Assembly (NCBI GenBank): GCA_947595215.1
Contig: CANQEO010000001.1
Location: 12,823 to 76,822 of the forward strand
Length of the DNA: 64,000 nt
Reading direction: 5' to 3'
Origin: an uncultured Bacilli bacterium
GTDB lineage: Bacteria; Bacillota_I; Bacilli_A; RFN20; CAG-449
The notes under the pieces were generated by a model. The model saw nothing but the letters and a program-made list of their open reading frames with translations, was not told where the DNA came from and made no database searches. The translations under genes and the position numbers were made by a program. Shown piece after piece: positions 3,158 to 33,647 of the stretch; position 1 is the stretch's first letter; every line of letters starts with the position of its first letter.

Positions 3158-4037
3158 TACGCTTATCTATAAAGTTTTTATAACCAGCCTCTGCGCTTGC
3201 AATTCGAGGTTTATAGTAGTACTTATCATATAAATGACATGCTACAATGGCAACAATTCCACCGATAAAGAATACCCAACCCATCGCGTAAGATGCAGCG
3301 ATTTTATCACCCATAATGAACTGGTCATTTCTTTGTTTTTCTAAGATAATTCTTGTTAGACCATACCAAATAAAATAAGTGGCAGCCATATCACCTGGAG
3401 CTTTATATTTTCTTAACAAGTATCCGATTCCAAAGTAAATAATTAAGAATCCGGCAAGATTAGTCAATGCTTCAATTAAGAAAAGCGGAGTTGCGATTTC
3501 TCCTTCTAAACATCCAGAGCCATTTATACCTGACATTTGATCTAAGATAAATGATGGTAAAAATCCCCATGTATTGCGATCAACACACTGTCCATAAACT
3601 TCTTGATTGAAAAAGTTTCCAATTCTTCCGATAGCTTGAGCCACAAGTATACCTGGAAACACAAAATCAATACCATCTAAAACTCTAAGATTTTTGCGTC
3701 TAAAATAAACAAATAAAATACCTGCTAGGCCACCTAGAAGAACTCCACCTTGAATTGCAAGACCACCTTCCCAAATTTTAAATACATTTTCAAAAGGTTT
3801 TCCGGCAAAAGTTTTTTGCCATTCGGCGATAACATACCATATGCGTGCTCCGATAATACCGGTTGGGAACGCGATATAAAATACACTTTCAAATATTCTA
3901 AAATCATATCCTTTTTTCTTTGCAGTGTAAGCAGCGATAAAATACGCGATAGCTGCTCCTATTAAAATAAATATCGCGTAGTAAGTGATTCTTAATGGAC
4001 CAATAACGATTTCTTTTGGTAAAGCAAATATGTTCAT
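3144..4037 (-). CDS. lgt: prolipoprotein diacylglyceryl transferase
   Basis: Polytopic membrane protein with the Lgt signature region (GARIWYV, GGLAIQGGVLLG, GRIGNFFNQEVYG). Confidence 0.93.
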   Translation of the reverse strand: MNIFALPKEIVIGPLRITYYAIFILIGAAIAYFIAAYTAKKKGYDFRIFESVFYIAFPTGIIGARIWYVIAEWQKTFAGKPFENVFKIWEGGLAIQGGVLLGGLAGILFVYFRRKNLRVLDGIDFVFPGILVAQAIGRIGNFFNQEVYGQCVDRNTWGFLPSFILDQMSGINGSGCLEGEIATPLFLIEALTNLAGFLIIYFGIGYLLRKYKAPGDMAATYFIWYGLTRIILEKQRNDQFIMGDKIAASYAMGWVFFIGGIVAIVACHLYDKYYYKPRIASAEAGYKNFIDKRNEDL

Positions 4038-5007: not shown

Positions 5008-7878
5008 TTAATCAACATTACGACGATTCATTCTCCCTTTATCCCGCTCAAGAATTCTTTTTAAATATTGACCTGTAAATGAATTTTCATTATTTGCAAC
5101 TTCTTCTGGTGTTCCTTTAGCGATTACCATACCTCCGCGTTCTCCACCTTCGGGTCCCATATCGATAATGTAATCAGCACATTTTATAACATCGAGGTTA
5201 TGTTCGATTACTACAACTGTATTACCACCCACAACAATCATTTGAAGCACATTTAATAAATCTTTGATGTCATGAGTATGAAGTCCTGTGGTAGGCTCAT
5301 CAAGAATATATAATGTTTTTCCAGTAGAACGACGTTGTAATTCATATGCAAGTTTAACACGTTGTGCTTCTCCACCAGAAAGAGTCGTAGAACTTTGACC
5401 AAGCTTAATATATCCAAGTCCTACATCATATAAAGTTTGGATTTTACGAGCTATTGAAGGAAGGTTCTTAAAGAACTCTTTCGCCTCTTCAACTGTCATA
5501 TCTAAAATTTCAAAAATATTTTTGCCTTTATAAGTAATTGATAATGTCTCATCATTGTAACGATGACCATGGCATTCATCACATACTACGTAAACGTCAG
5601 GTAAAAAGTTCATTGCAATTCTTCTTACGCCGTCACCATTACACTTTTCACAACGACCGCCAGGCATATTAAAGGAAAAGCGACTCTTTTGATAACCACG
5701 TGCTCTTGCTTCTTTTGTTTGAGCAAACAATTCTCTTATGTCATCAAAAACTCCAATATAAGTAGCAGGGTTACTTCTAGGGGTTTTGCCAATAGGTTCT
5801 TGAGAAACATTAATAACTTTATCAATGTTATCTAGACCGACAATATCATCGCACTCTCCACATTCAACTTTGGTTTGTGATAATTTTTGAGCCAATTTCT
5901 TATATAATGTCTCAGTAATTAGAGAACTTTTGCCAGAACCTGAAACACCAGTTACCGCAACCATACATCCTAAAGGTATGGAAACATTAATGTTTTTCAA
6001 GTTATTACAACGAGCACCTCTAATTTGAATCTCAGTTCCATGACCTTTAGAACGATATGCTGGAACCGGAATAAACATCTCACCTTTTAAATAACGTCCA
6101 GTTAATGAGTTTGGATTTTCCATTACTTCTTTTGGTGTTCCACTTGCAGTAATGTATCCACCATGTACACCTGCTCCTGGACCAATATCTACTAAATAGT
6201 CAGCCGCAAGCATAGTATCCTCATCATGTTCAACAACGATTAATGTATTTCCTAAATCTCTCATCGAGCGCATGGTTTGAATTAGACGATCGTTATCTCG
6301 CTGATGTAAACCAATTGATGGTTCATCTAAAACATATAAGACACCCGTCAACCGAGATCCGATTTGTGTTGCAAGACGAATACGTTGTGCTTCTCCACCG
6401 GATAATGTCATCGCCATTCTGGATAAAGTTAAATAATCTAATCCGACATCAATCAAAAATGAACATCGAGAATCTATTTCGCGAATAACTAAATTCGCAA
6501 TCTCTTTTTGCTCACAATCTAATACATTATCTAATTCTTTGATAAACGCTCTCAATTTTACTAAAGGTAAACAGCATACTTCATAAATGTTCAATCCATT
6601 GATTCTAACTGATAAAACTTGTTCATTGAGACGAGCACCATGACATGTAGGACATTCGCGGTCTTTCATGAAACTTGCGTAATACTCTCGAGATCCTTCA
6701 GAATTAGTGGTATCAAAAAGACGTTGAATACGATGTTTAATACCTTCAAATCCTCTTCTTTTAATAGTATTTCCCGATGCCGTTTTAATATCAACCCGAT
6801 ATTCATCTTCTGAGACGCCATTCATTAAGATATCTTTGTGTTTATCAGACAATTTACGATAAGGAATATCTAAAGGGATATCATAGTATTGCGCTAAACT
6901 TCTAAGTTCTTCCATATCGATAGTAGATTTTCCATCCATCGATTGATATTTATAGTATTTAATCGCTCCCTGATTAATTGAAAAATTATCATTAGGAATC
7001 AAAAGATCTTCACTAACTTCTTGTTTAATTCCTAAGCCCTTACAATCATGACAACATCCTAGAGGAGCATTAAAAGAAAATAAACGTGGCTCTAATTCTG
7101 GCACTGAAAAGCCGCAATATTTACAAGAATTATGTTCACTAAATAAAGTCTCTTGTCCATCACAAGAAATCAAAACATAGCCATTAGCAGCATCTAATGC
7201 GTTTTCAATGGAATCATAGATACGCGAAGTGCTGTTTTCTTTAAGTTTAAGGCGATCTACCACTATATCTATAAAGTGTTTCTTATTCTTTTCGAGTGGT
7301 TCAACTTCGCTTATTCTTATCGTTTCACTCTTATCAATTCTTACACGTTCATAACCTTTTGAGGCAAACTTTTTTAATGTTTCAATGTGAGTTCCTTTTT
7401 CATTACGAACGATTGGAGCCATTATGACAACTCTCGAATCAACCGGATTTTTCATCACAAAATCAACCATTTGTTTAGTTGTAATTTTAACAATAGGTTC
7501 ATGATGAGTCGGGCAATACGCAACACCAATACGTGCGAATAGAAGACGTAAATAGTCATATATTTCAGTAACTGTTCCGACTGTAGAACGTGGATTATGA
7601 GATGTGGTTTTCTGATCAATAGCAATTGCAGGTGATAAACCTTCAATAGAATCTACATCAGGTTTTTCAACATTGCCTAAAAATTGACGAACATAGCTAG
7701 AAAGTGATTCGACATAACGTCTTTGTCCTTCATTAAAAATAGTATCAAATGCAAGTGTTGATTTTCCTGATCCTGAAACACCAGTAAAAACAATTAATTT
7801 TTCTTTCGGTATTTCTAAATCGATATTCTTTAGATTGTTTTCACGAGCACCTTTTATGACAATTTTTTTATTTTCCAC
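5008..7878 (-). CDS. uvrA: excinuclease ABC subunit A
   Basis: 956 aa. Has two ABC ATPase modules (GVSGSGKST and GVSGSGKSS; LSGGEAQR twice) and zinc-finger Cys clusters. Full-length UvrA architecture. Confidence 0.98.
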
Positions 7879-8231
7879 TTCTCATCACCTCAAAAATATA
7901 TTGTATAATACTTTCGACTTAATCTCGATAATATTGCTCAATTTCGACAAAAAATCATACGCTGCGATTAAACAATATCTCTTTTTAGTATTTGATTAGA
8001 AGCTCTTAAAAATTCACATATCTAAATGAATCTGTTTTATTCATATAATCGTTTTTTACAATAGTTTCATAAATTCATAATAATACAATTTTTTTGCAAT
8101 ATATACATTCAAAAACACAAGCCACCCTGATTCCAGGCATAATGTACAACAAGTGCGATAACTATTATTAATAAAAGAATAATTTATATTTATTGCAGAA
8201 GCGTAAATAAAGGTGAAAACCGTTGATTATA

Positions 8232-8260
8232 TTGAAATTGGAATAAAAGTAATGTAGTAT
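8232..8260 (+). promoter_or_regulatory. sigma-A-type promoter for tRNA-Pro
   Basis: TTGAAA (8232-8237), a 17-nt spacer, then TAGTAT (8255-8260). It ends 10 nt before the mature tRNA 5' end. Confidence 0.45.
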
Positions 8261-8270
8261 AAATATACTT

Positions 8271-8347
8271 CGGGACGTAGCACAGCTTGGTAGTGCACTA
8301 CCTTGGGGTGGTAGGGGTCGTGCGTTCAAATCGCATCGTTCCGACCA
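8271..8347 (+). tRNA. tRNA-Pro, anticodon read as GGG
   Basis: A hand-folded 77-nt cloverleaf. Acceptor CGGGACG/CGTTCCG; D arm GCAC-AGCTTGGTA-GTGC. Anticodon arm CTACC-TTGGGGT-GGTAG, so positions 34-36 are GGG and position 37 is G. Variable loop GGGTC; T arm GTGCG-TTCAAAT-CGCAT. Discriminator A and an encoded CCA. Confidence 0.85.
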
Positions 8348-8360
8348 TTTATTAATTCGA

Positions 8361-8388
8361 GATATCAAGAATACTTGATATCTTTTTT
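8361..8388 (+). terminator. Rho-independent terminator of tRNA-Pro
   Basis: GATATCAAG-AATA-CTTGATATC forms a perfect 9-bp stem followed by TTTTTT. Confidence 0.8.
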
Positions 8389-8396
8389 ATAGAAGG

Positions 8397-9248
8397 ATGG
8401 AGATAGCCTTGGGATTTAAAAAAATCGAATTAAAAGATATAAATATAGTAAACCACTATTTGCAAATGCAAAGTTTTAGATCTTCTTTATATACCTTAGG
8501 AGTTCTTTTTTATTACGATGATCATTTTGCTCCTGAATATGATATTATCGATGACACTTTGCTAGTTAGAGTTAAAGATCTAAATGGAAAAACAAATTAT
8601 CTTTATCCTATCGGAAAGAATCAAGACAAGATAGCTAGAAGTTTGAAAACTTTGACTTATGTTCCTAAAGAAGCTAAAGATACGTTGTTAAATGATTACG
8701 AAGAGTCTTTAATTCCAAATTGGTTTGATTATCTTTATCGATATGAAGATCTTTTAAATTTAAAAGGAAAAAAATATCAAAAGATTCGCAATCATATAAA
8801 TCGCTTTATGACAAAGTATCATGAGTATCGATATGAAGAAATTTCCAGAGACAACTTTGATGATATTTTCAAAATTATTAATACTGTAATACCGCAAACC
8901 GAAGGTGCAAAAGTTGAACTAGAGCGCGTCAAAAGATGGATTCCCTACTATTTTTCTTTTCCATTCAAAGGTGGTATTTTATATGTAAAAGATGAACCCG
9001 TAGCGTTTTCTTTTGGTGAAGTTATAAAAGATACTCTTCACGTTCAAATCGAGAAAACAATAAAGACTTACGAAGGCGCGGGAGATATGCAAAGAAATCA
9101 ATTTTTGAAACTTTTCAAAAATAAAAATATTACGTATGTTAATAGACAAGAAGATTTAGGAGATCCAGGTTTACGCTTTCAAAAAAAGTCACTAAATCCT
9201 TGCGCTCTTTTAGACAAATTTAATTTAGAAAAAAAATATTACAAATAA
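8397..9248 (+). CDS. DUF2156-like (lysyl-phosphatidylglycerol synthase C-terminal-domain-like, GNAT-fold) protein
   Basis: 283 aa, soluble. The N-terminal pattern FKKIELKDINIVNHYLQ...SSLYTLGVLFYYDDHFAPEYDIIDDTLLVR, and the length, resemble stand-alone DUF2156 proteins. This family call is from memory and was not searched. Confidence 0.45.
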   Translation: MEIALGFKKIELKDINIVNHYLQMQSFRSSLYTLGVLFYYDDHFAPEYDIIDDTLLVRVKDLNGKTNYLYPIGKNQDKIARSLKTLTYVPKEAKDTLLNDYEESLIPNWFDYLYRYEDLLNLKGKKYQKIRNHINRFMTKYHEYRYEEISRDNFDDIFKIINTVIPQTEGAKVELERVKRWIPYYFSFPFKGGILYVKDEPVAFSFGEVIKDTLHVQIEKTIKTYEGAGDMQRNQFLKLFKNKNITYVNRQEDLGDPGLRFQKKSLNPCALLDKFNLEKKYYK

Positions 9249-9277
9249 ATTTGAGATACCTTTAAATATTTGTATAT

Positions 9278-22655: not shown

Positions 22656-22726
22656 TTATATCACTTCCTAATTTTTAATTTTACCATTTCATTGCTGTCT
22701 TTTAAATAATTTGAACTAATTGTTTT

Positions 22727-22765
22727 ATTAAAAAAGGTTGGATTATAGCGTTCCAACCTTTTTAA
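22727..22765. terminator. terminator after lipoprotein A1 (bidirectional form)
   Basis: AAGGTTGGA (22734-22742) pairs with TCCAACCTT (22752-22760) in a perfect 9-bp stem. An A-run precedes it and a T-run follows. Confidence 0.75.
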
Positions 22766-22789
22766 CTCATATGTTTACTTAACTTTAAT

Positions 22790-24658
22790 CTATGCTAAAT
22801 CAAAGATTAAAGTTAATTTAAATCTATCTCCACTAAAGTTTTCAGTAGAAACACCAATAGATAATTGAGTTTTTTCATCATTTACTCTTTCGCTTTCGTA
22901 ATCTTTCGAAATAGCAGCAAAATCATCCTCATCACTAAAACTAGATTTCCAATTTGAAATTACAAATGCGGATCCATCATAATTCCATTTAAATGTTGCA
23001 TACGAGGATACCATATATAATCTATTTGTAGGGTTAGCACTCCAAACACCGCTCATTTTTAATGAGCCTGTTTTATCCGCATTCAGTTTTAATACTGATG
23101 TGACATCGACTTCAACACCATCAAAATCAACAGTGTCAATACGAGAATGAGTACCTACTAAGAAAGAAACATCTACTCTTTCGACAATCGTTAAATCGAC
23201 AGAAGCAGTTTTACTTGAATCAGAACTTGAAATCGCAGTTACAGTTACTTTTCCCGGATTAAGTCCAGTAATTGTTAGAGCACTATAATCTTCACTTATT
23301 TTATAACTAACAATAGAATCTTCACTAAGTTCAACCGTGAATGCATGGTTAGCTCCTGTTGGCATAATACTCATTCCAATTTCAAGAGAATCTTCAACTT
23401 GAATAGTTTTCTGTTCTTCAGAGAGCGCTTTGAAGCCAAAACTGACAACAGGAGGATAAATAGCGGTAACCTCAATAGTTTTGGTTATCAAACCAAATTT
23501 ATCACCTACAACAAGATTAGTTGTACCTTCATCAATGACCTCAAATGTATCTATATATTGAGTTTTTCTTATAACATTTTCATTATCACTGCTCAAAATT
23601 TTGAACATGCTTGAATCAATCGCTGTAGCGGGTAAGAAATTATTGATATTAATCTGTAATTGTTTTCCTACTTCAACTTCATTCTTATTATGAGAACTAG
23701 AATTATAATAACTGCTAGAAATAGAAACATCTCCTAATTCTGAAATGTAATAAGATGATTTATCAAAATCTAAATTTTCAACACTGCCGTACACAATATT
23801 GCTAATTTCCCTTCCGGTTTGAGAAGCAGGTTTTTGATTGGCATCAATTAGTTTATTAATATCACTATCAAAGTTTTTAGAGTTCCATGTGTTGTAATAA
23901 AAAGAACCGCTGACAAGATTATTTTCACTATCAAATTTATAAACTGTATGATATGTAGCAACAACCGAAATAGAATTTGAAAGTGCATCGTATGTAAATG
24001 TAAATCCTCCATCTTTATCACGTACAATTTCCATTTGATTATCTTTATCAGGCAGTGGGTTTACCCCGGGAACAACAGATTTCAAACTATAAGAATCTCT
24101 CGCACCTTCGACAAACCAAGCTAAATCATAATTTATATTGTTTTGCATCTCAGTTTTTGCTTCATCTAACGTCTTTTCTAGATTAGAGTCAGTTACCGAT
24201 TCAACAATCTTAAACTTATCCGCAGGTTTAGAACTATCTGGTTCGATTGCATAATAATATTCTGAATCATAACCATGGTATAACATATATTCCACATTAA
24301 GATCGTCGAGATCTCTCATTCCTTCTTCTAATACACCATCATTAGCAATTTTTACGATACCATATCTACCAAGGCTTGCGATATCCTTAAACGATAATGA
24401 GGTAATACTCTTATCTAATGAAGCATTTACTAAAGCAACAACTTCATCTAGTGTTTTGGGAAGTGGTGTTTCTTCTTCGGATGATTCTTCTTCACTGCTA
24501 TCTTCAGAACTAACTTCATTTGATGTATCATTTTCAGTTAGAGAATCAGAAGTTGGATTAGAATTAATATCTGACTGACTGCTTCCTTCATCGCCGGGAT
24601 TACATGCCATTAATGATAAGGTAGTAAGAGATACTAGTAATAATTTTATTTTTTTCAT
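22790..24658 (-). CDS. large surface lipoprotein, paralog A1 (622 aa)
   Basis: Start at 24658 (MKKIKLLLVSLTTLSLMAC lipobox; GAAAGGAAGGAAAG RBS). It has an acidic S/E-rich linker, Big_2-like segments and the shared C-terminal module. The ORF-track extension MLYIFISHNIILNNFERKERF covers the promoter. Confidence 0.85.
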   Translation of the reverse strand: MKKIKLLLVSLTTLSLMACNPGDEGSSQSDINSNPTSDSLTENDTSNEVSSEDSSEEESSEEETPLPKTLDEVVALVNASLDKSITSLSFKDIASLGRYGIVKIANDGVLEEGMRDLDDLNVEYMLYHGYDSEYYYAIEPDSSKPADKFKIVESVTDSNLEKTLDEAKTEMQNNINYDLAWFVEGARDSYSLKSVVPGVNPLPDKDNQMEIVRDKDGGFTFTYDALSNSISVVATYHTVYKFDSENNLVSGSFYYNTWNSKNFDSDINKLIDANQKPASQTGREISNIVYGSVENLDFDKSSYYISELGDVSISSSYYNSSSHNKNEVEVGKQLQININNFLPATAIDSSMFKILSSDNENVIRKTQYIDTFEVIDEGTTNLVVGDKFGLITKTIEVTAIYPPVVSFGFKALSEEQKTIQVEDSLEIGMSIMPTGANHAFTVELSEDSIVSYKISEDYSALTITGLNPGKVTVTAISSSDSSKTASVDLTIVERVDVSFLVGTHSRIDTVDFDGVEVDVTSVLKLNADKTGSLKMSGVWSANPTNRLYMVSSYATFKWNYDGSAFVISNWKSSFSDEDDFAAISKDYESERVNDEKTQLSIGVSTENFSGDRFKLTLIFDLA

Positions 24659-24689
24659 AAATCTTTCCTTCCTTTCAAAGTTATTTAAA

Positions 24690-24718
24690 ATTATATTGTG
24701 AGATATAAAAATATACAA
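24690..24718 (-). promoter_or_regulatory. sigma-A-type promoter of lipoprotein A (duplicated at 29671-29699)
   Basis: On the minus strand: TTGTAT, a 17-nt spacer, then TATAAT. It lies about 30 nt upstream of the RBS. Confidence 0.6.
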
Positions 24719-24821
24719 CATTTTTATTAAAAAATGAAAATAGCTGTGTAAAATTATCAGCTTTTTTGTAAATTAATTTCAAAATCTTTGCTAAATTCTT
24801 TTAAACATTATTTAAACTGCT

Positions 24822-24851
24822 TATAATGTGATAAACAATCATATTGTTTAT
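24822..24851 (+). promoter_or_regulatory. -10 box plus 9-3-9 palindrome upstream of lipoprotein B (duplicated at 29803-29832)
   Basis: TATAAT at 24822-24827. It is followed by the perfect palindrome ATAAACAAT-CAT-ATTGTTTAT (24831-24851), just before the AAAGGAGA RBS. Confidence 0.45.
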
Positions 24852-24873
24852 TTAACTAAAGGAGATGGAAGTT

Positions 24874-26283
24874 ATGAAAAAAAGAAAGCTATTATTAACT
24901 TTGACTACTGTCGTTTTAGTTGGTCTTGTCGGCTGTGATCAAGAAAATCCTTCAACAAGTAGTAGTGATAGTGAACACCCAACTGTCGATCAAAGTTTTG
25001 CTCAAGTTTTAGCTAACGCCAAAAAAAGTGTCAATATCGTTGGTGAATATATATCCGTTTATACAGATGATGGAGAAATTGATGAAGAAGGAAGTTACGA
25101 TATTACTATCGCCTCTGATTTCTATCAAACATCTCGTTACTATACGGGTTCTTACGGAAGAGAATATGATGAAAATTATACTTTTGTAAAAGGTGATGAT
25201 GGAAAGATTTACGAACGTACTCTTTCTCTTAAAAATACACCCACTGATGTGATTTATAAAAATAGTTTTAATGGCGAAGAATTAAATTATGATGAACTTT
25301 GCTTAAATCCCTTTGAATCATTAGAAATCGATGATTTTTATGTTGATGAAAATGGACGCTATTCAGTAAATACAAACGCTGTCAACGCTTTTAAAGGAAT
25401 TACTATCCTTGAAAGTATTCGTGATATTTACTTCTTCCCTGAATTACAAGTTGAAAGTGTTTCATTTGAATATAATAATGGTGTTTTATCCGATGGTATT
25501 ATTTCTACTGTGCCACAAAAAGATCATACCGTATTTGAATGGAATTTCTATTATGAATTTACTTTCGAAATTGATTTCCCCGGTGAATTAGATATTCCTG
25601 AGGTTGAAACTCTCCCAAGCAATGAATCACATGAAATTTTAAAAACTGCATTAAATAAAATGCATGAAAAAATGTCTGGAAACAACTATACCATTCACGC
25701 TTACTATGGTGACGATGAACTCGATTCAGAATATGACACTTACTATTATGGAGATGGGTGTTATAGCGAATTCCACCCTCTTCTTTACTCATATACCCAA
25801 GGGTATAAATTACATGCAGATGGAAAATATTATCGCTATAGATATTATTTAGCCGATGATTCATTTGATCATAAAGCCGGAGAATTAATTTATGATGTTG
25901 ATCTTGGAGGATACTATGTAGGTAGTAAATCCGTTATCAATAGTTTAGAAGAAATAGGTGCTGATTTTTCAATTTTTGCGCCAGAATTTTTCAAAAGCAA
26001 TACAGCGAATACTCTCTTCACTACAAGTAACAGAAAATATAGCGAAGCTATTTATAATGCTTTTACTCCATTTGTTGATAAATCAGATGGTGATTATGAT
26101 GTTAGAAGTATCACAATCGAATTAGATAGCACTACGAAAGAAATCACTTCTATCAGCGGTGTCGCTTACGATAATTACGCAGAATATGAATATGAATTCA
26201 CATATACCTATGGCTCTTTTGGATCAACTGTAAATCCTCTCGATGACCAAATTCGCGGTGGCGTACCTGATAAGAATTCATAA
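24874..26283 (+). CDS. lipoprotein, family B copy 1 (469 aa)
   Basis: MKKRKLLLTLTTVVLVGLVGC has a lipobox. The start is at the second ATG, 9 nt after AGGAGA. The body has two tandem modules, each beginning with a helix and an N-Y/F-T motif (ALNKMHEKMSGNNYTIHAYY). Confidence 0.85.
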   Translation: MKKRKLLLTLTTVVLVGLVGCDQENPSTSSSDSEHPTVDQSFAQVLANAKKSVNIVGEYISVYTDDGEIDEEGSYDITIASDFYQTSRYYTGSYGREYDENYTFVKGDDGKIYERTLSLKNTPTDVIYKNSFNGEELNYDELCLNPFESLEIDDFYVDENGRYSVNTNAVNAFKGITILESIRDIYFFPELQVESVSFEYNNGVLSDGIISTVPQKDHTVFEWNFYYEFTFEIDFPGELDIPEVETLPSNESHEILKTALNKMHEKMSGNNYTIHAYYGDDELDSEYDTYYYGDGCYSEFHPLLYSYTQGYKLHADGKYYRYRYYLADDSFDHKAGELIYDVDLGGYYVGSKSVINSLEEIGADFSIFAPEFFKSNTANTLFTTSNRKYSEAIYNAFTPFVDKSDGDYDVRSITIELDSTTKEITSISGVAYDNYAEYEYEFTYTYGSFGSTVNPLDDQIRGGVPDKNS

Positions 26284-26300
26284 TATGTAGGTGTAAAATT

Positions 26301-27584
26301 ATGAAAAAGAATTTAATTGTCGCATCGGTTCTACTTGTTTCAGTATTTGTCATTGCCAGTTGCGAAAATGGCGCAGAACCAACTTCAAGCGAATTACCGA
26401 GTCAAACATTTAATTACAATAACGCTCTTCAATATGTAAAAAATCATACCTTCTCTCTTGAAGGTGATGTCAACATGGTCTTTGATGAATATGGTGACAC
26501 AATCGGTACTAAAAGTAATCATGTGAAAAGTGCCTTTAACGAAAGCATTGTCTCTTTTTCTAATAGTTACTATTACGAAATATCTGATGATGAAACAATA
26601 TCGATGGACTCTACTGGATATACGGTATTTGAAAAAGAAGATGGTAAAGCTTACGTTAGAACCATCACCATGCAAAACAAAGTTAAAGATGTTGTTTATA
26701 CTGATGATAACGAACAACCAATAATATTTAAAGATTATTTTTACAACCCATTCAAGGATTTAAAATTCAGCGATTTCACCAGATCCGGAAATAATGTTTT
26801 ATTGAAAACAACTAAACGCGATACCTTAGCATCAAAGTTATTTCCACAAGCTGATATGATCTATTTCAGTAGTGGAGATACCTTATCATTTACAGTGAAA
26901 GATGATAAATTTGACACATTGACCTTCGACGTAAGTGCTGGCTTCTTAGACTTTTCGGTTTCTTATCGCTACACTTTACAATTTACTTACGATGTCGAAT
27001 TAGAGATTCCAAATATCACCCCATATCCACATCGCGATGAACATGATGATCTTAAAGAAGCTTTAGACAAACTTCAAGATTCCATCAGAGATTTGAACTA
27101 TACTACTTTTGTTTCATTAGATGGAGTAAGTTCATTTAATATTTATGAAACTTATAATACCATTTACACTTCCGCAGTTGATGAAACGGGATATACTTAT
27201 GGTTTAGTAGAAGAAAATGATGGGATGTATTATTTTAACTATGATGGTGAAAAAGTAACCATCGACCATAGTGAAAATTATGGTGAACGAGAATATTACG
27301 AACCAAGTTTCCTTAACTTTGCACCAGAATTCTTCACTTTATATGATGATGGCAAATACTATGTAGAAGATGCATTTGTTGCATCTGTCGCCCTATTAAT
27401 AGCCCCATTCAATTTACAATACTCCTTCTATAATAATGCTTATACAATAGCAATAACCTTAGATAATGGAGAAATCTCTACTATTGAAGTCTCTTTCTTC
27501 GATATGAATTACTTTAGTTCTGGAACCTATACTTTAGAATATGGTGCTTTCGGTACTACTCATCTTCCTTTTTCTTATAATTAG
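26301..27584 (+). CDS. lipoprotein, family B divergent paralog (427 aa)
   Basis: MKKNLIVASVLLVSVFVIASC has a lipobox. Alignable by eye with family B, e.g. EALDKLQDSIRDLNYTTFVS and NFAPEFFTLYDDGKYY versus IFAPEFFKSNTAN. Confidence 0.8.
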   Translation: MKKNLIVASVLLVSVFVIASCENGAEPTSSELPSQTFNYNNALQYVKNHTFSLEGDVNMVFDEYGDTIGTKSNHVKSAFNESIVSFSNSYYYEISDDETISMDSTGYTVFEKEDGKAYVRTITMQNKVKDVVYTDDNEQPIIFKDYFYNPFKDLKFSDFTRSGNNVLLKTTKRDTLASKLFPQADMIYFSSGDTLSFTVKDDKFDTLTFDVSAGFLDFSVSYRYTLQFTYDVELEIPNITPYPHRDEHDDLKEALDKLQDSIRDLNYTTFVSLDGVSSFNIYETYNTIYTSAVDETGYTYGLVEENDGMYYFNYDGEKVTIDHSENYGEREYYEPSFLNFAPEFFTLYDDGKYYVEDAFVASVALLIAPFNLQYSFYNNAYTIAITLDNGEISTIEVSFFDMNYFSSGTYTLEYGAFGTTHLPFSYN

Positions 27585-27599
27585 TTTATCAAAAAAATT

Positions 27600-27637
27600 A
27601 ATCGCAGTTTAATTCGTTGAACTGCGATTTTTTATTA
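27600..27637 (+). terminator. Rho-independent terminator
   Basis: AATCGCAGTT-TAATTCGTTG-AACTGCGATT forms a perfect 10-bp stem followed by TTTTTATT. Confidence 0.8.
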
Positions 27638-27697
27638 AATTCTTTCTATAAGATACTAATAAAAAGTCAACTTGTTTTAAAATAAAACTTAAACTAT

Positions 27698-27730
27698 CTA
27701 AAAAGGATTAGATTAGCTAATCCTTTTTAA
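27698..27730 (-). terminator. Rho-independent terminator after lipoprotein A2
   Basis: AAGGATTAG (27703-27711) pairs with CTAATCCTT (27717-27725) in a 9-bp stem with a 5-nt loop. A U-run follows on the minus strand. Confidence 0.7.
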
Positions 27731-27755
27731 ATTTATTTACTTATTAACTGAAATG

Positions 27756-29639
27756 TTACACATTCAAATCAAAAACCATTTGAATTTCGTATTTATCATC
27801 CATGTAATCATAACTTCTGGTTTTAAAAGTAAGTTGAGTTTTATCAGCATTCAAAGTTGGATTACCAGTTATACTAAAGTATAATTCTCCTGAAGTATCA
27901 TATCCAATCCAATTAGTAAACGTTACTTTTTCTCCATTATAACTCCAGTTAAATGTAGCAGTTGAGTTAATACTCATATAAATGCTTGTATGGTCGATAC
28001 TTACTTGTTCAAGAGAACCTGTTTTATCATCATTTAAAGTCAATGTTGAAACAACTGTGAGATTATTTATAATAGCAGTATAAGTGAAAGTACCAATCAA
28101 GAAATCTTCATATATTTTTTCAATGATTGTAAGGTTCATGCTAGCAATTTTACTGGGATCTGAAGTTGCAGTTGCAGTAATTGTTGCAGTGCCCGGATTA
28201 ACACCAGTAACTTTTATGGATTTGTAATCTTCACTTATTTCGTATTCGATTACATTTGGGTCACTAACTTCGACAGTAAAAACTTTATTAGCGCCAGCAG
28301 GTGAACCATTAACTTGAATTATTAAAGATTCATCAACTTGGAAAGTCTTTTGGCTATCAGGAATAAAAACAAAGTTGAAAGAGGAAAGTGGTGGTTCAAC
28401 AACAGTAACTTCAACAATTTTCGTTATTAAACCAAACTTGTCACCAACGACAACATTCGCGATTCCTGAAGCTACCGCTTCGAATTTATCAGCATTATAT
28501 GCAGAAGTAGATTTTCTAATAACATCTTCATTATCGCTGCTTAACACTTTAAAAGATTTAGCATCCAAAGCCGTTGTCGGTAAATAACTTACAATATAAA
28601 CATCTAATGTATAACCTATTTCAGCTTTATTCTTATCACCATCATCCGGACGAAATGAATCATAAGTTGTTGAAACAAACACTTCCGATAATTCGCTAAT
28701 AAAATATGGAGAAACATCAAAGTTTAAACTTTCTTCTTCACCATACACAATGTTAGAAAGCTCTCTTCCAATCATCGAATTTGGATTTTGATCTGAATCG
28801 ATAATTTTATGAGATTCCGAATCAATATTGGTACTTTTCCATGAATAGTAATAATATGATCCGCTGACAAGATTATTTTCACTATCAAATTTATAAACTG
28901 TATGATATGTATTTGAACTAAGAGATGAAATTGAATCAAAGGAGAAAGTAAATCCTCCATTATCATCGCGAACAATCATCATTTGATCGTCTTTATCTGG
29001 CAGTGGATTTACACCTTCAATGATTGAATTTGAGGTAAATGTTTCTTTGGATTTTTCTATTAGCCATTTTAAGTTATAAGTAGAACTATTTTCAATTTTT
29101 GATTTGGCATCTTCCAATGTAATTTCTAAGTTTTTATCCGCAACATTTTCTACTAAGTTATATTTTTCAGCAGTTGTATTTGAATTTATATCATAATAAA
29201 AATTGGAATCGAAACCTTTATATATTAAATAGTCTTCATAATTCTTATTTGCATCTTTTGAAATCATAAATAAATCAGTATTTTCTTTAACTTCTTGTAT
29301 ACCCTGTTCTAAGGTTCCTTCATCAGCAAATTTAACATTTCCCCTTTTTTCAGTAGACGAAAAATCCTTAAACGATAATGAGGTAATACTCTTATCTAAT
29401 GAAGCATTTACTAAAGCAACAACTTCATCTAGTGTTTTGGGAAGTGGTGTTTCTTCTTCGGATGATTCTTCTTCACTGCTATCTTCAGAACTAACTTCAT
29501 TTGATGTATCATTTTCAGTTAGAGAATCAGAAGTTGGATTAGAATTAATATCTGACTGACTGCTTCCTTCATCGCCGGGATTACATGCCATTAATGATAA
29601 GGTAGTAAGAGATACTAGTAATAATTTTATTTTTTTCAT
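27756..29639 (-). CDS. large surface lipoprotein, paralog A2 (627 aa)
   Basis: The first 92 aa are identical to A1. The rest is a clearly related but much more divergent paralog, e.g. HTVYKFDSENNLVSGSYYYYSWKSTNIDSE versus HTVYKFDSENNLVSGSFYYNTWNSKNFDSD. Confidence 0.85.
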   Translation of the reverse strand: MKKIKLLLVSLTTLSLMACNPGDEGSSQSDINSNPTSDSLTENDTSNEVSSEDSSEEESSEEETPLPKTLDEVVALVNASLDKSITSLSFKDFSSTEKRGNVKFADEGTLEQGIQEVKENTDLFMISKDANKNYEDYLIYKGFDSNFYYDINSNTTAEKYNLVENVADKNLEITLEDAKSKIENSSTYNLKWLIEKSKETFTSNSIIEGVNPLPDKDDQMMIVRDDNGGFTFSFDSISSLSSNTYHTVYKFDSENNLVSGSYYYYSWKSTNIDSESHKIIDSDQNPNSMIGRELSNIVYGEEESLNFDVSPYFISELSEVFVSTTYDSFRPDDGDKNKAEIGYTLDVYIVSYLPTTALDAKSFKVLSSDNEDVIRKSTSAYNADKFEAVASGIANVVVGDKFGLITKIVEVTVVEPPLSSFNFVFIPDSQKTFQVDESLIIQVNGSPAGANKVFTVEVSDPNVIEYEISEDYKSIKVTGVNPGTATITATATSDPSKIASMNLTIIEKIYEDFLIGTFTYTAIINNLTVVSTLTLNDDKTGSLEQVSIDHTSIYMSINSTATFNWSYNGEKVTFTNWIGYDTSGELYFSITGNPTLNADKTQLTFKTRSYDYMDDKYEIQMVFDLNV

Positions 29640-31257
29640 AAATCTTTCCTTCCTTTCAAAGTTATTTAAAATTATATTGTGAGATATAAAAATATACAAC
29701 ATTTTTATTAAAAAATGAAAATAGCTGTGTAAAATTATCAGCTTTTTTGTAAATTAATTTCAAAATCTTTGCTAAATTCTTTTAAACATTATTTAAACTG
29801 CTTATAATGTGATAAACAATCATATTGTTTATTTAACTAAAGGAGATGGAAGTTATGAAAAAAAGAAAGCTATTATTAACTTTGACTACTGTCGTTTTAG
29901 TTGGTCTTGTCGGCTGTGATCAAGAAAATCCTTCAACAAGTAGTAGTGATAGTGAACACCCAACTGTCGATCAAAGTTTTGCTCAAGTTTTAGCTAACGC
30001 CAAAAAAAGTGTCAATATCGTTGGTGAATATATATCCGTTTATACAGATGATGGAGAAATTGATGAAGAAGGAAGTTACGATATTACTATCGCCTCTGAT
30101 TTCTATCAAACATCTCGTTACTATACGGGTTCTTACGGAAGAGAATATGATGAAAATTATACTTTTGTAAAAGGTGATGATGGAAAGATTTACGAACGTA
30201 CTCTTTCTCTTAAAAATACACCCACTGATGTGATTTATAAAAATAGTTTTAATGGCGAAGAATTAAATTATGATGAACTTTGCTTAAATCCCTTTGAATC
30301 ATTAGAAATCGATGATTTTTATGTTGATGAAAATGGACGCTATTCAGTAAATACAAACGCTGTCAACGCTTTTAAAGGAATTACTATCCTTGAAAGTATT
30401 CGTGATATTTACTTCTTCCCTGAATTACAAGTTGAAAGTGTTTCATTTGAATATAATAATGGTGTTTTATCCGATGGTATTATTTCTACTGTGCCACAAA
30501 AAGATCATACCGTATTTGAATGGAATTTCTATTATGAATTTACTTTCGAAATTGATTTCCCCGGTGAATTAGATATTCCTGAGGTTGAAACTCTCCCAAG
30601 CAATGAATCACATGAAATTTTAAAAACTGCATTAAATAAAATGCATGAAAAAATGTCTGGAAACAACTATACCATTCACGCTTACTATGGTGACGATGAA
30701 CTCGATTCAGAATATGACACTTACTATTATGGAGATGGGTGTTATAGCGAATTCCACCCTCTTCTTTACTCATATACCCAAGGGTATAAATTACATGCAG
30801 ATGGAAAATATTATCGCTATAGATATTATTTAGCCGATGATTCATTTGATCATAAAGCCGGAGAATTAATTTATGATGTTGATCTTGGAGGATACTATGT
30901 AGGTAGTAAATCCGTTATCAATAGTTTAGAAGAAATAGGTGCTGATTTTTCAATTTTTGCGCCAGAATTTTTCAAAAGCAATACAGCGAATACTCTCTTC
31001 ACTACAAGTAACAGAAAATATAGCGAAGCTATTTATAATGCTTTTACTCCATTTGTTGATAAATCAGATGGTGATTATGATGTTAGAAGTATCACAATCG
31101 AATTAGATAGCACTACGAAAGAAATCACTTCTATCAGCGGTGTCGCTTACGATAATTACGCAGAATATGAATATGAATTCACATATACCTATGGCTCTTT
31201 TGGATCAACTGTAAATCCTCTCGATGACCAAATTCGCGGTGGCGTACCTGATAAGAA
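29364..31257. repeat. 1894-bp direct repeat, copy 2
   Basis: See copy 1. Identity ends inside the last codons of the B gene: AAT TCA TAA in copy 1 versus AAC TCT TAA in copy 2. Both encode N-S-stop. Confidence 0.9.
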
Positions 31258-31264
31258 CTCTTAA
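29855..31264 (+). CDS. lipoprotein, family B copy 2 (469 aa, protein identical to copy 1)
   Basis: The ORF-track translation is identical to 24865-26283. Confidence 0.85.
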   Translation: MKKRKLLLTLTTVVLVGLVGCDQENPSTSSSDSEHPTVDQSFAQVLANAKKSVNIVGEYISVYTDDGEIDEEGSYDITIASDFYQTSRYYTGSYGREYDENYTFVKGDDGKIYERTLSLKNTPTDVIYKNSFNGEELNYDELCLNPFESLEIDDFYVDENGRYSVNTNAVNAFKGITILESIRDIYFFPELQVESVSFEYNNGVLSDGIISTVPQKDHTVFEWNFYYEFTFEIDFPGELDIPEVETLPSNESHEILKTALNKMHEKMSGNNYTIHAYYGDDELDSEYDTYYYGDGCYSEFHPLLYSYTQGYKLHADGKYYRYRYYLADDSFDHKAGELIYDVDLGGYYVGSKSVINSLEEIGADFSIFAPEFFKSNTANTLFTTSNRKYSEAIYNAFTPFVDKSDGDYDVRSITIELDSTTKEITSISGVAYDNYAEYEYEFTYTYGSFGSTVNPLDDQIRGGVPDKNS

Positions 31265-31285
31265 CTATATTCTTACTCATAATCA

Positions 31286-31325
31286 AAAATAAAACTACCG
31301 TTTGATAGCGGTAGTTTTATTTTAA
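31286..31325. terminator. bidirectional terminator between lipoprotein B copy 2 and rplQ
   Basis: AAAACTACCG (31291-31300) - TTTGATAG - CGGTAGTTTT (31309-31318) forms a perfect 10-bp stem with A/T runs on both sides. Confidence 0.8.
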
Positions 31326-31727
31326 TTAGTCGACGAAACTGACAATAGCCATCGCCGCATTATCACCGCGACGATTACCAGTTTTAAGTACTCTAGTGTA
31401 TCCACCATTGCGATTTTCGTATCTTTTAGCAAGATCATCGAAAAGTTTCTTTAACGCAGTATTACCATTTTTATCAGCGACTACGTTACGAACAGTTCTT
31501 GCCGCAAGACGACGAGCTGCTAAATCACCTTTTTTACCATAAGTGACCATTCTGTCCGCTAAAGCGGAGAGTTCTTTAGCAACCGGTAATGTGACTTCAA
31601 CTTTTTCATTAACGATTAATTCGGTAACGAGGTTTCTTAGCATCGCTTTGTATTTAGATGGGGTAAATGCCGCCTTAAAACGGACACCACCCTTACCATG
31701 TACATTTTTACGTCCTTGTGTACGCAT
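31326..31727 (-). CDS. rplQ: 50S ribosomal protein L17 (bL17)
   Basis: The translation fits bL17 (HGKGGVRFKA...LVTELIVNEKVEVT). It lies downstream of rpoA. Confidence 0.96.
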   Translation of the reverse strand: MRTQGRKNVHGKGGVRFKAAFTPSKYKAMLRNLVTELIVNEKVEVTLPVAKELSALADRMVTYGKKGDLAARRLAARTVRNVVADKNGNTALKKLFDDLAKRYENRNGGYTRVLKTGNRRGDNAAMAIVSFVD

Positions 31728-31740
31728 TTAACTTGTCCTC

Positions 31741-32691
31741 CTATTCGTATTCTCTGAAGCCAAGTCCGATGCCTGCAAGCTTTTCTTTGACTTCTTTTAA
31801 AGATTTCTTACCGAGATTTCTGACTTTCATCATATCCTCCTCAGTCTTTTGTGTGAGTTCCATAACTGTAGCGATAGCCGCTCTTTTTAGGCAGTTATAA
31901 GAACGAACTGAAAGATCGAGTTCTTCGATAGTCATGTCTTGATATTTGTTCTTTGGTTCTTCAACAGTTTCCGCGAGAACTTCGGTAGATTTAGCAATTT
32001 CACTTAATTCTTCGAATAACTCAAAGTGAGTAACTAAGATTTTCGCTGCTAAAGCAACCGCATCGTGAGGAAGCATCGAACCATTAGTCCAAACTTCCAA
32101 ATCGAGTTTGTCATAATTTGAATTATGTCCGATTCTAGTCGGTAACACTTCATATTTAACTTTAGTAATTGGGGAGTAATTGGAATCGGTTGGAATCACA
32201 CCAAGCGGTAATGATTTTGATTTATTACCTTCTCCTGTTACATAACCTCTACCATTACGAGCGTAGATGGTCATAATAAGTTTTCCCGTCTCGTTAACAT
32301 GAGCGATGACAAGATTTTTGTTGATGACTTCAACACCGGCCGGGCAGACGATATCTGCAGCGGTAACCACTTTACTTTCTTGAACGTTGATAGTTAATTT
32401 GTAATTGCTATCGACGTCTTCGTCGATTTTGAGAACTAAACTCTTGAGATTTAAAACGATGCTTGTGACATCTTCTTCGATACCCTCAAGAGATGAGAAC
32501 TCATGACGAGCTCCTTCGACCTCGATTGCGTAAACGCTAGCACCCGGAAGTGAGGAGAGTAATACTCTTCTTAAAGCATTTCCAATCGTCATACCAAAAC
32601 CACGTTCTAATGGTTCGATGACGAAATGACCGTAATTAGATGTTGTATCGTAACTAGCGATCTTAAATTCTGGCTTTTCAAATTTTTTCAT
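31741..32691 (-). CDS. rpoA: DNA-directed RNA polymerase subunit alpha
   Basis: 316 aa. Carries an N-terminal dimerisation domain and a C-terminal domain (IEELDLSVRSYNCLKRA). Confidence 0.98.
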   Translation of the reverse strand: MKKFEKPEFKIASYDTTSNYGHFVIEPLERGFGMTIGNALRRVLLSSLPGASVYAIEVEGARHEFSSLEGIEEDVTSIVLNLKSLVLKIDEDVDSNYKLTINVQESKVVTAADIVCPAGVEVINKNLVIAHVNETGKLIMTIYARNGRGYVTGEGNKSKSLPLGVIPTDSNYSPITKVKYEVLPTRIGHNSNYDKLDLEVWTNGSMLPHDAVALAAKILVTHFELFEELSEIAKSTEVLAETVEEPKNKYQDMTIEELDLSVRSYNCLKRAAIATVMELTQKTEEDMMKVRNLGKKSLKEVKEKLAGIGLGFREYE

Positions 32692-32719
32692 AGTTTTCCT
32701 CCCTGGTTAACATGCACGA

Positions 32720-33118
32720 CTATCCGCGTGGACGTTTTGGTGGCCGACATCCATTGTGTGGAATCGGTGTAGTATCAGTAATAACTTGAATTGAAAGACC
32801 AGCTGCTTGAAGACTTCTTAAAGCAGATTCACGGCCTTGTCCAGGTCCTTTGACGTTGACATCAACAGTCTTTAAACCTTGATCGAGAGCAGCTTTAGCA
32901 CATTTTTCAGCAGCCATTTGAGCTGCGAATGGTGTCGATTTCTTTGAACCTTTGAAACCTAAAGCGCCGGCTGAACTCCAAGCAATCGCATTACCGGCTT
33001 CGTCGGTAATGGTGATGATTGTGTTGTTAAAGGTCGAATGAATGTGGGCGATACCTTTAGTATAACTTCTTTTAATTTTCTTCTTACGAGTAGTAGAAGA
33101 TTTTTTTGCTTGTGCCAT
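32720..33118 (-). CDS. rpsK: 30S ribosomal protein S11 (uS11)
   Basis: [18 protein letters not shown]...[14 protein letters not shown] is the canonical uS11 sequence. Confidence 0.98.
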
Positions 33119-33137
33119 ATACTATTTACCTCACTTT

Positions 33138-33515
33138 CTAACCTTGAGTGGCTTTCTTCTTGTTCGCGATAGTCTTTTTCGGTCCTTTGCGAGTTCTCGC
33201 ATTGGTCTTTGTTCTTTGACCACGAACTGGTAAGCCTTTACGATGTCTAAGTCCACGATAGCAGCCAATTTCGCTTAAACGTTTGATGTTTAATGAAATT
33301 TCTCTACGAAGGTCACCTTCGACCTTGATAGCGCTGACTTCTTTTCTAATCGCGGTGAGTTGTTCTTCGGTTAAGTCTTTAACGCGAACATCTTCACTGA
33401 CGTTAGCAGCCGCTAAAATTTTCTTCGCGGTTGTTGGTCCGATACCAAAGATGTAAGTTAAAGAGACAACTACGCGTTTTTCATTGGGTATATCTACTCC
33501 AACAATACGTGCCAT
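33138..33515 (-). CDS. rpsM: 30S ribosomal protein S13 (uS13)
   Basis: [26 protein letters not shown] is the canonical uS13 N-terminus. Confidence 0.98.
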
Positions 33516-33533
33516 TTTTCTTTTCCTCCTAAA

Positions 33534-33647
33534 TTAGCCTTGTCTTTGCTTATGTTTGGGGTTTTGGCAGATGACCATGACGCGGCCTTTTCTGCGGATT
33601 ACCTTGCACTTGTCGCAAATCGGTTTTACTGAGGGTCTCACTTTCAT
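33534..33647 (-). CDS. rpmJ: 50S ribosomal protein L36 (bL36), zinc-binding type
   Basis: Too short for the ORF track. The reverse translation is [37 protein letters not shown] (37 aa). It lies between infA and rpsM. Confidence 0.95.

Follow-up and report, generated by a model that had tools for sequence, protein, structure and literature searches.

An exact 1.9-kb repeat among old lipoprotein paralogs of an uncultured gut Bacilli bacterium, and its probable origin by gene conversion

How can two lipoprotein genes share every base of their first 92 codons, of the DNA upstream, and of nearly all of the gene beyond it, when the rest of their sequence has diverged so far? This question arises from a window (the whole stretch of DNA that was analysed, 64,000 nucleotides) from an uncultured Bacilli bacterium. 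The original prediction was that a perfect direct repeat had been produced by a very recent duplication or by ongoing gene conversion, and that recombination between its copies would switch the cell's surface lipoproteins. We will argue that the repeat is real, that gene conversion between old paralogs is the best explanation for it, and that a role in switching is doubtful.

The repeat, its genes, and its support in the reads

By direct string comparison, positions 24383-26276 and 29364-31257 are the same (1894 bp, 0 mismatches, offset 4981), and extending the match by one base breaks it at either end. So the proposed repeat exists, with the right coordinates and offset, and the scattered mismatches that would mark an ordinary pair of paralogs are absent over all 1894 bp. 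Judging from the sequences, this identity is far beyond chance; the adjoining paralogous DNA is about 60% identical. The features of the locus are as follows.

22700-31280 (edges approximate), unstranded: lipoprotein island (A1, B, B', A2, B), between a dCMP deaminase gene and the terminator of rplQ
22790-24658, minus strand: lipoprotein A1, 622 amino acids by translation, with codons 1-92 in repeat copy 1
23907-23957, unstranded: 51-nt exact tract in the body of A1, identical to 28861-28911
24383-26276, unstranded: repeat copy 1 (R1), 1894 bp, string-identical to R2; one 1894-bp Logan contig at about twofold depth
24659-24873, unstranded: divergent intergenic region, 215 bp, with its second copy at 29640-29854
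24874-26283, plus strand: lipoprotein B, copy 1, 469 amino acids by translation, lipobox LVGC
26301-27584, plus strand: lipoprotein B', 427 amino acids, within the unique unit Y
27756-29639, minus strand: lipoprotein A2, 627 amino acids, with codons 1-92 in repeat copy 2
28861-28911, unstranded: second copy of the 51-nt exact tract (identical to 23907-23957), within the body of A2
29364-31257, unstranded: repeat copy 2 (R2), 1894 bp, string-identical to R1; seen in Logan contigs
29855-31264, plus strand: lipoprotein B, copy 2, the same protein as copy 1, with synonymous differences in its last two sense codons

As had been described, each copy of the repeat contains codons 1-92 of A, the 215-bp intergenic region, and all of B except its last 7 bases. 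The right end is the second base of B's second-last sense codon, and the correctly predicted synonymous difference there (AAT TCA TAA in copy 1, AAC TCT TAA in copy 2) can be seen in the sequence. Our codon count for A uses the start that is supported by a ribosome-binding site (MKKIK, at 24658 and 29639). For B, the anatomy of the predicted 472-codon reading frame was right and its start was not: translation probably begins at the ATG at 24874 (29855 in copy 2), which gives 469 amino acids; the GGAG lies directly against the ATG at 24865.

A1 has a signal peptide, a lipobox (LMAC), an acidic Ser/Glu linker, and a Big_2-like domain, whose match to the Pfam family Big_2 (E = 2.8e-4) is short of the cut-off. 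(The A1 sequence is P0027 in our protein collection.) B' is a distant paralog of B, with 25% amino acid identity. The gap between B copy 1 and B' is 17 nt, and the two probably form one operon; a terminator-like hairpin follows B' at 27600-27629. Another hairpin, after B copy 2 (31293-31320), is common to rplQ. In the intergenic region, a consensus scan found -35/-10-like pairs for B at 24800-24827 (plus strand) and for A at 24782-24753 (minus strand); the number of such sites is not above that in shuffled sequences, and it is their positions alone that are suggestive. The same region has a 9-3-9 palindrome (24831-24851). There is also a 26-nt inverted repeat, which is simply two signal-peptide starts (MKK...) that face each other. 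A Pfam scan identified the island's neighbors as rplQ, rpoA, and the genes for dCMP deaminase and an ECF transporter, and between 22000 and 32000 there was no match to Rfam.

The original prediction proposed that read depth and junctions be checked. We used Logan contigs, which are independent builds from four runs of one rabbit-gut sample (probably the source of the genome assembly as well); searches for other samples with this species gave only these four runs. The repeat appears as a single contig of 1894 bp, with a word depth of 29-34 as compared to 10-20 in its four neighbors. The ratio of repeat depth to flank depth is 1.91-2.00 across the four runs of this sample, and neighboring contigs overlap the repeat by k-1 = 30 bases at 4 of 4 junctions. 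Together, the doubled depth and the junctions argue against a single repeat that was falsely duplicated by the assembler.

The assembly could also be wrong in subtler ways. If R is the repeat and Y the unique unit, then a k-mer graph cannot tell X-R-Y-R-Z from X-R-Z plus a 4981-bp circle of R and Y, and the circle would contain exactly one canonical trio, A and then B and B'. The tandem copy number might also be different, or differences between the copies might have been lost by bubble popping. The genome is, after all, a metagenome bin from short reads (851 kb in 24 contigs, 65% complete). Nevertheless, Y joins the repeat at both sides and joins nothing else, and its depth matches that of the left flank (16.0 versus 15.9; 16.2 versus 16.1), which is what one chromosome should give. 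For an episome without replication genes, such equality would be a coincidence. The depth of the repeat itself also fits two chromosomal copies, and no alternative contig lies on it at 85% likeness and a 1% share (in Logan contigs, which drop rare variants). Elsewhere, the same assembly retained near-identical repeats with their mismatches. We consider it very improbable that the structure is even partly a product of assembly. Bubble popping is a feature of both assemblers, so the copies may differ at a few sites, and the exact identity may be slightly overstated.

Two apparent irregularities in the reads were set aside. A deletion joint from 24741 to 26298 turned up in 4 of 4 runs, but it is spurious: the contig behind it is unrelated, has low depth, and matches only 21-23 bases per side. 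And where depth falls on the rplQ side (10-15 versus 16), our tentative explanation is the higher GC content there (40.7%) and the fragmentation of conserved ribosomal genes, rather than structural heterogeneity. For those who scan genomes, the lesson is that a kilobase-long exact repeat may be real even in a bin from short reads.

A probable recent overlay on old paralogs

Outside of the repeat, the bodies of A1 and A2 have 60% nucleotide and 46% amino acid identity, and identity at third codon positions is 27-57% in most blocks of 30 codons. So the adjoining paralogous sequence is indeed far more diverged than the repeat, as had been noted (about 60% in the A bodies versus 1894 of 1894). At the left edge, the alignment of A1 and A2 runs across without a gap and identity falls at once. 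Because this edge is in register and the drop to 60% is abrupt, we conclude that the A paralogs are old and were overlaid later by the identical tract. This excludes a simple recent tandem duplication of the 4981-bp unit, after which the bodies would be nearly the same. Of the two origins that had been suggested, then, the general class holds up, while a plain duplication of the unit does not.

The right edge is also informative. Here B keeps its stop codon and its two final sense codons, with two synonymous changes, so that 5 of the next 7 bases match; of the 8 bases after those, 0 match. We estimate that this much likeness would arise by chance with a probability of about 0.03 at this base composition, with the homology resting on 7 bases. 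The sequence suggests that a homologous end of B was already present at the second position, and gene conversion is favored because the two synonymous differences occupy the last two codons of B.

The repeat is not the only exact tract of this kind. There is another of 51 nt inside the diverged bodies of A1 and A2, 425 nt from the repeat. When codon columns were shuffled, 0 of 20000 shuffles reached a run of 51 (the largest was 32 and the mean was 14.6). Also, contig C10 of the same genome carries two tandem genes for papain-family protease/lectin proteins of about 1225 amino acids, which share an exact 3' tract of 1485 nt. The tract stops 5 nt beyond the stop codon and has about twofold depth, and the N-terminal halves of the two proteins have 33-70% amino acid identity.

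Given boundaries in register (clearly so at the left edge, suggestively at the right), the 51-nt tract, and the second locus, we favor ectopic gene conversion, with old tandem paralogous modules as the partners, either very recent or frequently repeated, and we give this a probability of roughly 60%. We infer the mechanism, direction, and timing as follows. There would have been two old tandem modules in the same orientation; in each, A would lie on the minus strand and B, divergently, on the plus strand, and the first module would also have B'. Non-reciprocal homologous copying of the RecA type would then have overwritten one module with the sequence of the other, over a stretch that begins at codon 92 of A, takes in the shared promoter region, and stops 7 bases short of the end of B. 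This would have happened very recently, or so often that 1894 bp gathered no substitution. The genome encodes RecA (441 bits) and MutS as well. A difficulty is that, at an identity of only about 60%, recombination between two DNAs is as a rule strongly suppressed. It is hard to see how a 1.9-kb tract could start and end in such DNA, unless the replaced segment was much closer to its donor than the A bodies are to each other.

Other genomes help to place the event. The 8.5-kb island is absent from 3 of 3 genomes of the same genus, in which the deaminase gene comes straight after rplQ, and an intergenic alignment places copy 2 right at the island's margin, with some 16 nt between it and the ancestral intergenic sequence. 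At every other locus that we found (L013, L119, L120, L121-124, and G011), the trio of A, B, and B' is single-copy, so the doubling is peculiar to this genome. The rest of the genome contains no further copies of A or B. The composition of the island gives no signal of foreign origin, as its GC content (31.4%) equals that of the genome (31.9%).

The location of copy 2 could be explained differently, as the end-point of a deletion. Suppose that unequal crossing-over between A1 and A2, or template switching during replication, duplicated the segment to give A1, B B', A2::A1-5', B B', A2, and that the extra B' and A were then deleted, up to the rplQ terminator. Unequal crossing-over predicts a left edge that is in register inside the A paralogs, as is seen, and RecA is available. 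Yet this scenario requires two events, no remnant of B' was found after B copy 2, and the same two final residues and stop of B, in synonymous codons, would have had to reappear by chance when the extra sequence was lost (the probability of about 0.03 given above). It also leaves the separate 51-nt tract unexplained. We consider duplication followed by deletion to be unlikely.

Comparison with known surface-variation systems

If gene conversion is correct, then the closest worked example that we have found is in the bab genes of Helicobacter pylori, with their babA/babB/babC chimeras. There, conversion at 60-240 bp from the start codon moves the 5' region of babB onto babA or babC (PMC4552749). 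In both cases there is non-reciprocal copying among the paralogs of a surface protein, and the 5' regulatory region of one gene becomes joined to the body of another. In A, the join lies 276 bp from the start codon. In contrast to the bab genes, the tract also includes an entire divergent promoter region and a complete neighboring gene (B), the paralogs are in tandem and 5 kb apart, and the host is an uncultured gut bacterium of the Gram-positive type, represented by one sample.

The arrangement also resembles the lipoprotein families of Mycoplasma (Vpma, Vsp, and Vsa; VlhA and MgPar), which have a conserved promoter, leader, and signal peptide in front of divergent bodies, and in which recombination yields new combinations (PMC2268961, PMC4206340). 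Vpma, Vsp, and Vsa vary by site-specific recombination, while VlhA and MgPar vary by conversion from silent cassettes. These families have one expression site and many silent or invertible copies, whereas both copies at our locus are complete and, from their sequences, look as if they are expressed. Cassette-type antigenic variation (as in VlhA, MgPar, pilE/pilS, or vlsE), with its promoterless and partial silent copies, does not fit, as each of the two A and two B genes is a complete open reading frame with the same upstream region. A switch of the Vpma, Vsa, or Vsp type does not fit either. Vpma has an adjacent Xer-type recombinase and short sites; here, the sole long repeat is direct and 1.9 kb long, and there was no recombinase among the neighboring genes that we scanned with Pfam.

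It could still be that the cassette is held identical as a device, so that recombination deletes, amplifies, or reshuffles the A bodies and the cell surface differs among members of one population. The bacterium lives in the gut and has a small genome, these are surface lipoproteins, and their constant 5' part and variable bodies are like those of the Mycoplasma families. The genome even has a second pair of surface-protein genes of the same design, the protease/lectin pair. But there are just two copies, both of them complete and with promoters; the repeats are direct, not inverted; 0 recombinases were found in the scan of neighboring genes; and the trio is single-copy at the other loci. Nor does depth show a sign of deletion or amplification variants: that of Y equals that of the left flank, which leaves no sizeable subpopulation with the deletion, and in the Logan contigs (from which rare variants are dropped) no variant contigs or letters were seen across the region. 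So we doubt that the variation is programmed. The prediction that the repeat is a substrate for deletion or amplification by RecA is sound in principle, as RecA is present, while its operation as a switch of the surface-lipoprotein repertoire has no support, given the equal depths, just two copies, and two complete A genes with the same promoter. A broader version is that the repeats at the island and on contig C10 are both maintained parts of RecA-driven surface variation, with identical cassettes (promoter and leader, or anchor) and exchangeable bodies. This is a long shot; if true, it would be a Mycoplasma-like strategy of surface variation outside of the Mollicutes, in uncultured gut Bacilli with small genomes.

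Under gene conversion, the consequences would be as follows. A1 and A2 would differ in their bodies, but their promoters, 5' leaders, signal peptides, linkers, and first helices would by now be the same. There would be two identical copies of B, one co-transcribed with B' and the other alone. The repeats may recombine with each other and so delete or amplify the 4981-bp unit, which would be a by-product with no demonstrated function. Most likely there is nothing unusual about the mechanism, a known process, and what is new is the little-known lineage in which it is seen. The main value of the repeat is as a clean case, supported by reads, in which old paralogs have probably undergone gene conversion, in a lineage of uncultured gut bacteria with small genomes (probably the RFN20/CAG-449 group of Bacilli). 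It suggests that homologous copying remodels the surface-protein genes of this lineage at two loci at least.

A rare lipoprotein module

What might the B proteins do? Neither Pfam nor NCBIfam has a family for B, and sequence searches of the PDB with A and B gave no match. An AlphaFold model of B from an alignment of 13 sequences (pLDDT of 84.6) has two domains, each with a helix and a half-barrel; from the single sequence, the pLDDT is only 33. With this model, Foldseek matched BFA1, LolA, LprG, and RseB, and the best match was to the two-barrel BFA1. The probabilities for LolA and LprG are 0.96-1.00, with TM-scores that are low (0.35-0.43 per target). LolA/LprG-like proteins are recognized by an unclosed beta-barrel, a helical plug, and a hydrophobic cavity. 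The model of B has a helix and a curved antiparallel sheet, twice over, as in the half-barrel lipid-binding fold of LolA, LolB, LprG, and RseB. By predicted fold, then, B would be two LolA/LprG-like half-barrels.

The B family amounts to 21 representative clusters among 1.84 billion proteins, and each of the island's proteins is the sole member of its 90%-identity cluster. Word-indexed searches for homologs turned up a single further cluster for B; for A, they gave no cluster apart from its own paralog, A1. A search of genome contigs with B alone gave no match. There was also no record of contigs that encode the window's own B, although records from this genome or very near ones may have been excluded. 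These results flag a rare three-gene lipoprotein module, with a Big_2-bearing A and, by their modeled fold, LolA-like B and B'. This module is not annotated anywhere, and it is found in differing contexts in several gut metagenomes.

Extent and gene content of the repeat

The segments 24383-26276 and 29364-31257 are identical (1894/1894 bp; offset 4981 bp), and on direct comparison the match cannot be extended by one base at either end, so the predicted coordinates are exact. Each copy contains codons 1-92 of a minus-strand lipoprotein gene (A1 or A2), a 215-bp divergent intergenic region, and nearly all of a plus-strand lipoprotein gene (B). At their N-termini, all four proteins (A1, A2, B, and the distant B paralog B') carry a lipoprotein signal peptide and a lipobox.

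Genes at the repeat (window coordinates)
22790-24658, minus strand, A1, from its RBS-supported MKKIK start
24874-26283, plus strand, B copy 1
26301-27584, plus strand, B'
27756-29639, minus strand, A2
29855-31264, plus strand, B copy 2
31326-31727, minus strand, rplQ

The B part of the repeat stops at the second base of B's second-last sense codon, and the sequences of both copies bear out the endings that had been described, AAT TCA TAA (copy 1) and AAC TCT TAA (copy 2).

In three genomes from the same genus, rplQ leads directly to a dCMP deaminase gene and then to ECF transporter genes. Because these genomes have no insert between rplQ and the deaminase, the ~8.5-kb lipoprotein island is specific to this species. 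By intergenic alignment, its right edge is ~16 nt past the second B stop, just before the conserved rplQ terminator. The island's GC content (31.4%) matches the genome's (31.9%).

Both repeat copies also include a perfect 9-3-9 palindrome, ATAAACAAT CAT ATTGTTTAT (24831-24851 and 29812-29832). The palindrome at 24831-24851 lies 3 nt past a TATAAT box and 6 nt ahead of B's AAAGGAG RBS, and might act as an operator or form a 5' stem-loop. The intergenic region is also spanned by an inverted repeat of 26 nt (85%; 24635-24660 versus 24872-24897). We rejected it as a recombination site: it arises because both divergent genes start with ATGAAAAAAA... (MKK.KLLL signal peptides).

Read support for two copies

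The genome is an 851-kb bin (24 contigs, 65% complete) from a rabbit gut metagenome. Among public genomes, the closest are uncultured Bacilli from short-read "Lapin" bins; farther off are relatives with the names CAG:449 and Candidatus Caccosoma, which points to the RFN20 group. Because a 1.9-kb exact repeat within a short-read contig is suspect, we checked the region with Logan contigs, which were built independently from four sequencing runs. In each run, the repeat is a single contig of exactly 1894 bp with a word depth of 29.2-33.7. Its four neighbors (on the A1-body, B', A2-body, and rplQ sides) each overlap it by 30 bases (k-1) and have depths of 10-20. The original prediction had proposed a check of junctions and depth; in these short-read contigs all four joins are present, and the repeat has about twice (1.91-2.00 times) the mean depth of its flanks. 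Furthermore, the unique unit between the copies (B' plus the A2 body) connects at both ends to the repeat and has no other joins, so any genome with this unit holds two repeat copies. No alternative contig on the repeat was found in the four runs, even at 85% similarity.

It is very unlikely that the locus was misread at the assembly level. Such a misreading could take the form of a chromosome with one repeat copy between the left flank and the rplQ side, plus a 4981-bp circle, which k-mers alone do not tell apart from the assembled order. Also, bubble popping could have erased a few differences between the copies. The four runs are short reads throughout and come from one sample, probably the assembly's source.

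On the rplQ/rpoA side (31228-33600), the read-derived depth is 10-15, versus ~16 on the island and left flank, and the contigs are short. We attribute this, tentatively, to higher GC content (40.7%) and to sequence common to related organisms.

Origin of the identical tract

It had been proposed that the repeat reflects a very recent duplication or ongoing gene conversion. A1 and A2 align without gaps across the repeat's left edge, where identity drops at once from 100% to ~60% (nucleotide) or 46% (amino acid). This drop excludes a recent event that simply duplicated the 4981-bp unit in tandem. In most 30-codon blocks of the A bodies, third-codon-position identity is 27-57%; orthologs from different species of the genus are 62-92% identical (amino acid). 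Judging from this divergence, the A paralogs are old: they differ at least as much as orthologs from separate species of the genus do, and the identical tract is a later overlay on them. We favor gene conversion, with a probability of roughly 60%: homologous, non-reciprocal copying between old paralogs would have laid the tract over them.

At the right edge, B's last two codons and stop are kept, with two synonymous differences. Past the tract, 5 of 7 bases match and then 0 of 8, which by our estimate has a probability of ~0.03 by chance. This result suggests that copy 2 had a homologous B end before the event. There is also a separate 51-nt exact tract within the diverged A bodies (23907-23957 = 28861-28911). 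The next longest common word is 16 nt, and 0 of 20000 codon-column shuffles gave a run of over 32. Finally, whole-genome self-comparison identified a second case on contig C10 (locus L118), where an exact direct repeat of 1485 bp (2217-3701 and 7777-9261) runs through the 3' 493 codons of each of two ~1225-aa genes in tandem and ends 5 nt after the stop. These encode secreted papain-family protease/lectin proteins (with Peptidase_C1, lectin-like, and MBG domains) whose N-terminal halves are 33-70% identical in amino acids. The two genes are separated by one for a DUF4143 AAA ATPase, and the tract has ~2x flank depth in read-derived contigs. Together, the synonymous differences, the 51-nt tract, and the C10 case point to homologous, non-reciprocal copying, and we consider duplication plus deletion to be unlikely.

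The genome encodes RecA. The main difficulty for conversion is that it also encodes MutS, so recombination that begins and ends in 60%-identical DNA should be rare. Possibly the two sequences were closer to each other in the replaced segment than the A bodies are today, or selection may have retained a rare event.

The closest analogue is ectopic gene conversion between surface-protein paralogs, as in the bab genes of H. pylori, where a conversion event at 60-240 bp from the start codon joins the 5' region of one paralog to the body of another (PMC4552749). A1 and A2 share a "constant leader, variable body" design with Mycoplasma lipoprotein families. Those families rely on silent cassettes that serve an expression site, or on a neighboring recombinase that acts at short sites (PMC4206340, PMC2268961), whereas neither is present here, and programmed variation seems quite improbable. 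Given the known analogue and the absence of these switch features, we assign the repeat to a known kind of event: it is real, well delimited, and mechanistically ordinary.

There are further repeats in this genome. Right of the window, C1 84699-84982 and 87016-87299 form a 284-bp direct repeat (99.3% identity), with weaker matches nearby (85347-85436 versus 87317-87406) and an 80% match to C17. Here, too, a paralog cluster contains a nearly identical tract. C21 1-965 holds diverged tandem repeats in a long array (period ~66 nt; shifted copies are 75-78% identical), and this contig end probably encodes a repetitive surface protein.

Consequences, and the module elsewhere

A1 and A2 now have a common promoter, leader, signal peptide, acidic linker, and first helix, and the remainder differs. 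The conserved PLP-x-TLD-x-V motif of the A family is in the shared part, so the join cuts inside the folded region and not at the linker. B copy 1 is followed by B' after 17 nt, and B copy 2 ends at a hairpin in common with rplQ. As had been suggested, the copies can in principle recombine, which would remove B' together with the A2 body, or amplify the unit. The depth of the unique unit between the copies equals that of the long left-flank contig (16.0 versus 15.9 and 16.2 versus 16.1), which argues against a sizeable deletion or amplification subpopulation in the sample; small fractions would be invisible.

Together, A, B, and B' make up a three-gene lipoprotein module that is conserved and lacks annotation; it occurs in unrelated contexts in several gut metagenomes, in three gene orders. 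At each of the loci listed below, A, B, and B' are single-copy; the window alone carries A and B twice.

Gene orders of the module
A (minus), B and B' (plus): four different metagenome contexts (L013, L119, L121-124)
B, B', then convergent A: L120
B, B', A on a single strand: a genome of the same family (G011:C46)

The B family is very small, as 1.84 billion proteins include only 21 representative clusters of it, and B has no match in Pfam or NCBIfam or to PDB sequences. An AlphaFold model of B (13-sequence alignment, pLDDT 84.6) has two helix-plus-half-barrel domains, which Foldseek relates to BFA1, LolA, LprG, and RseB with high probability and low TM-scores. The fold predicted for B comprises two half-barrel domains that are LolA/LprG-like. 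A has a weak match to Big_2.
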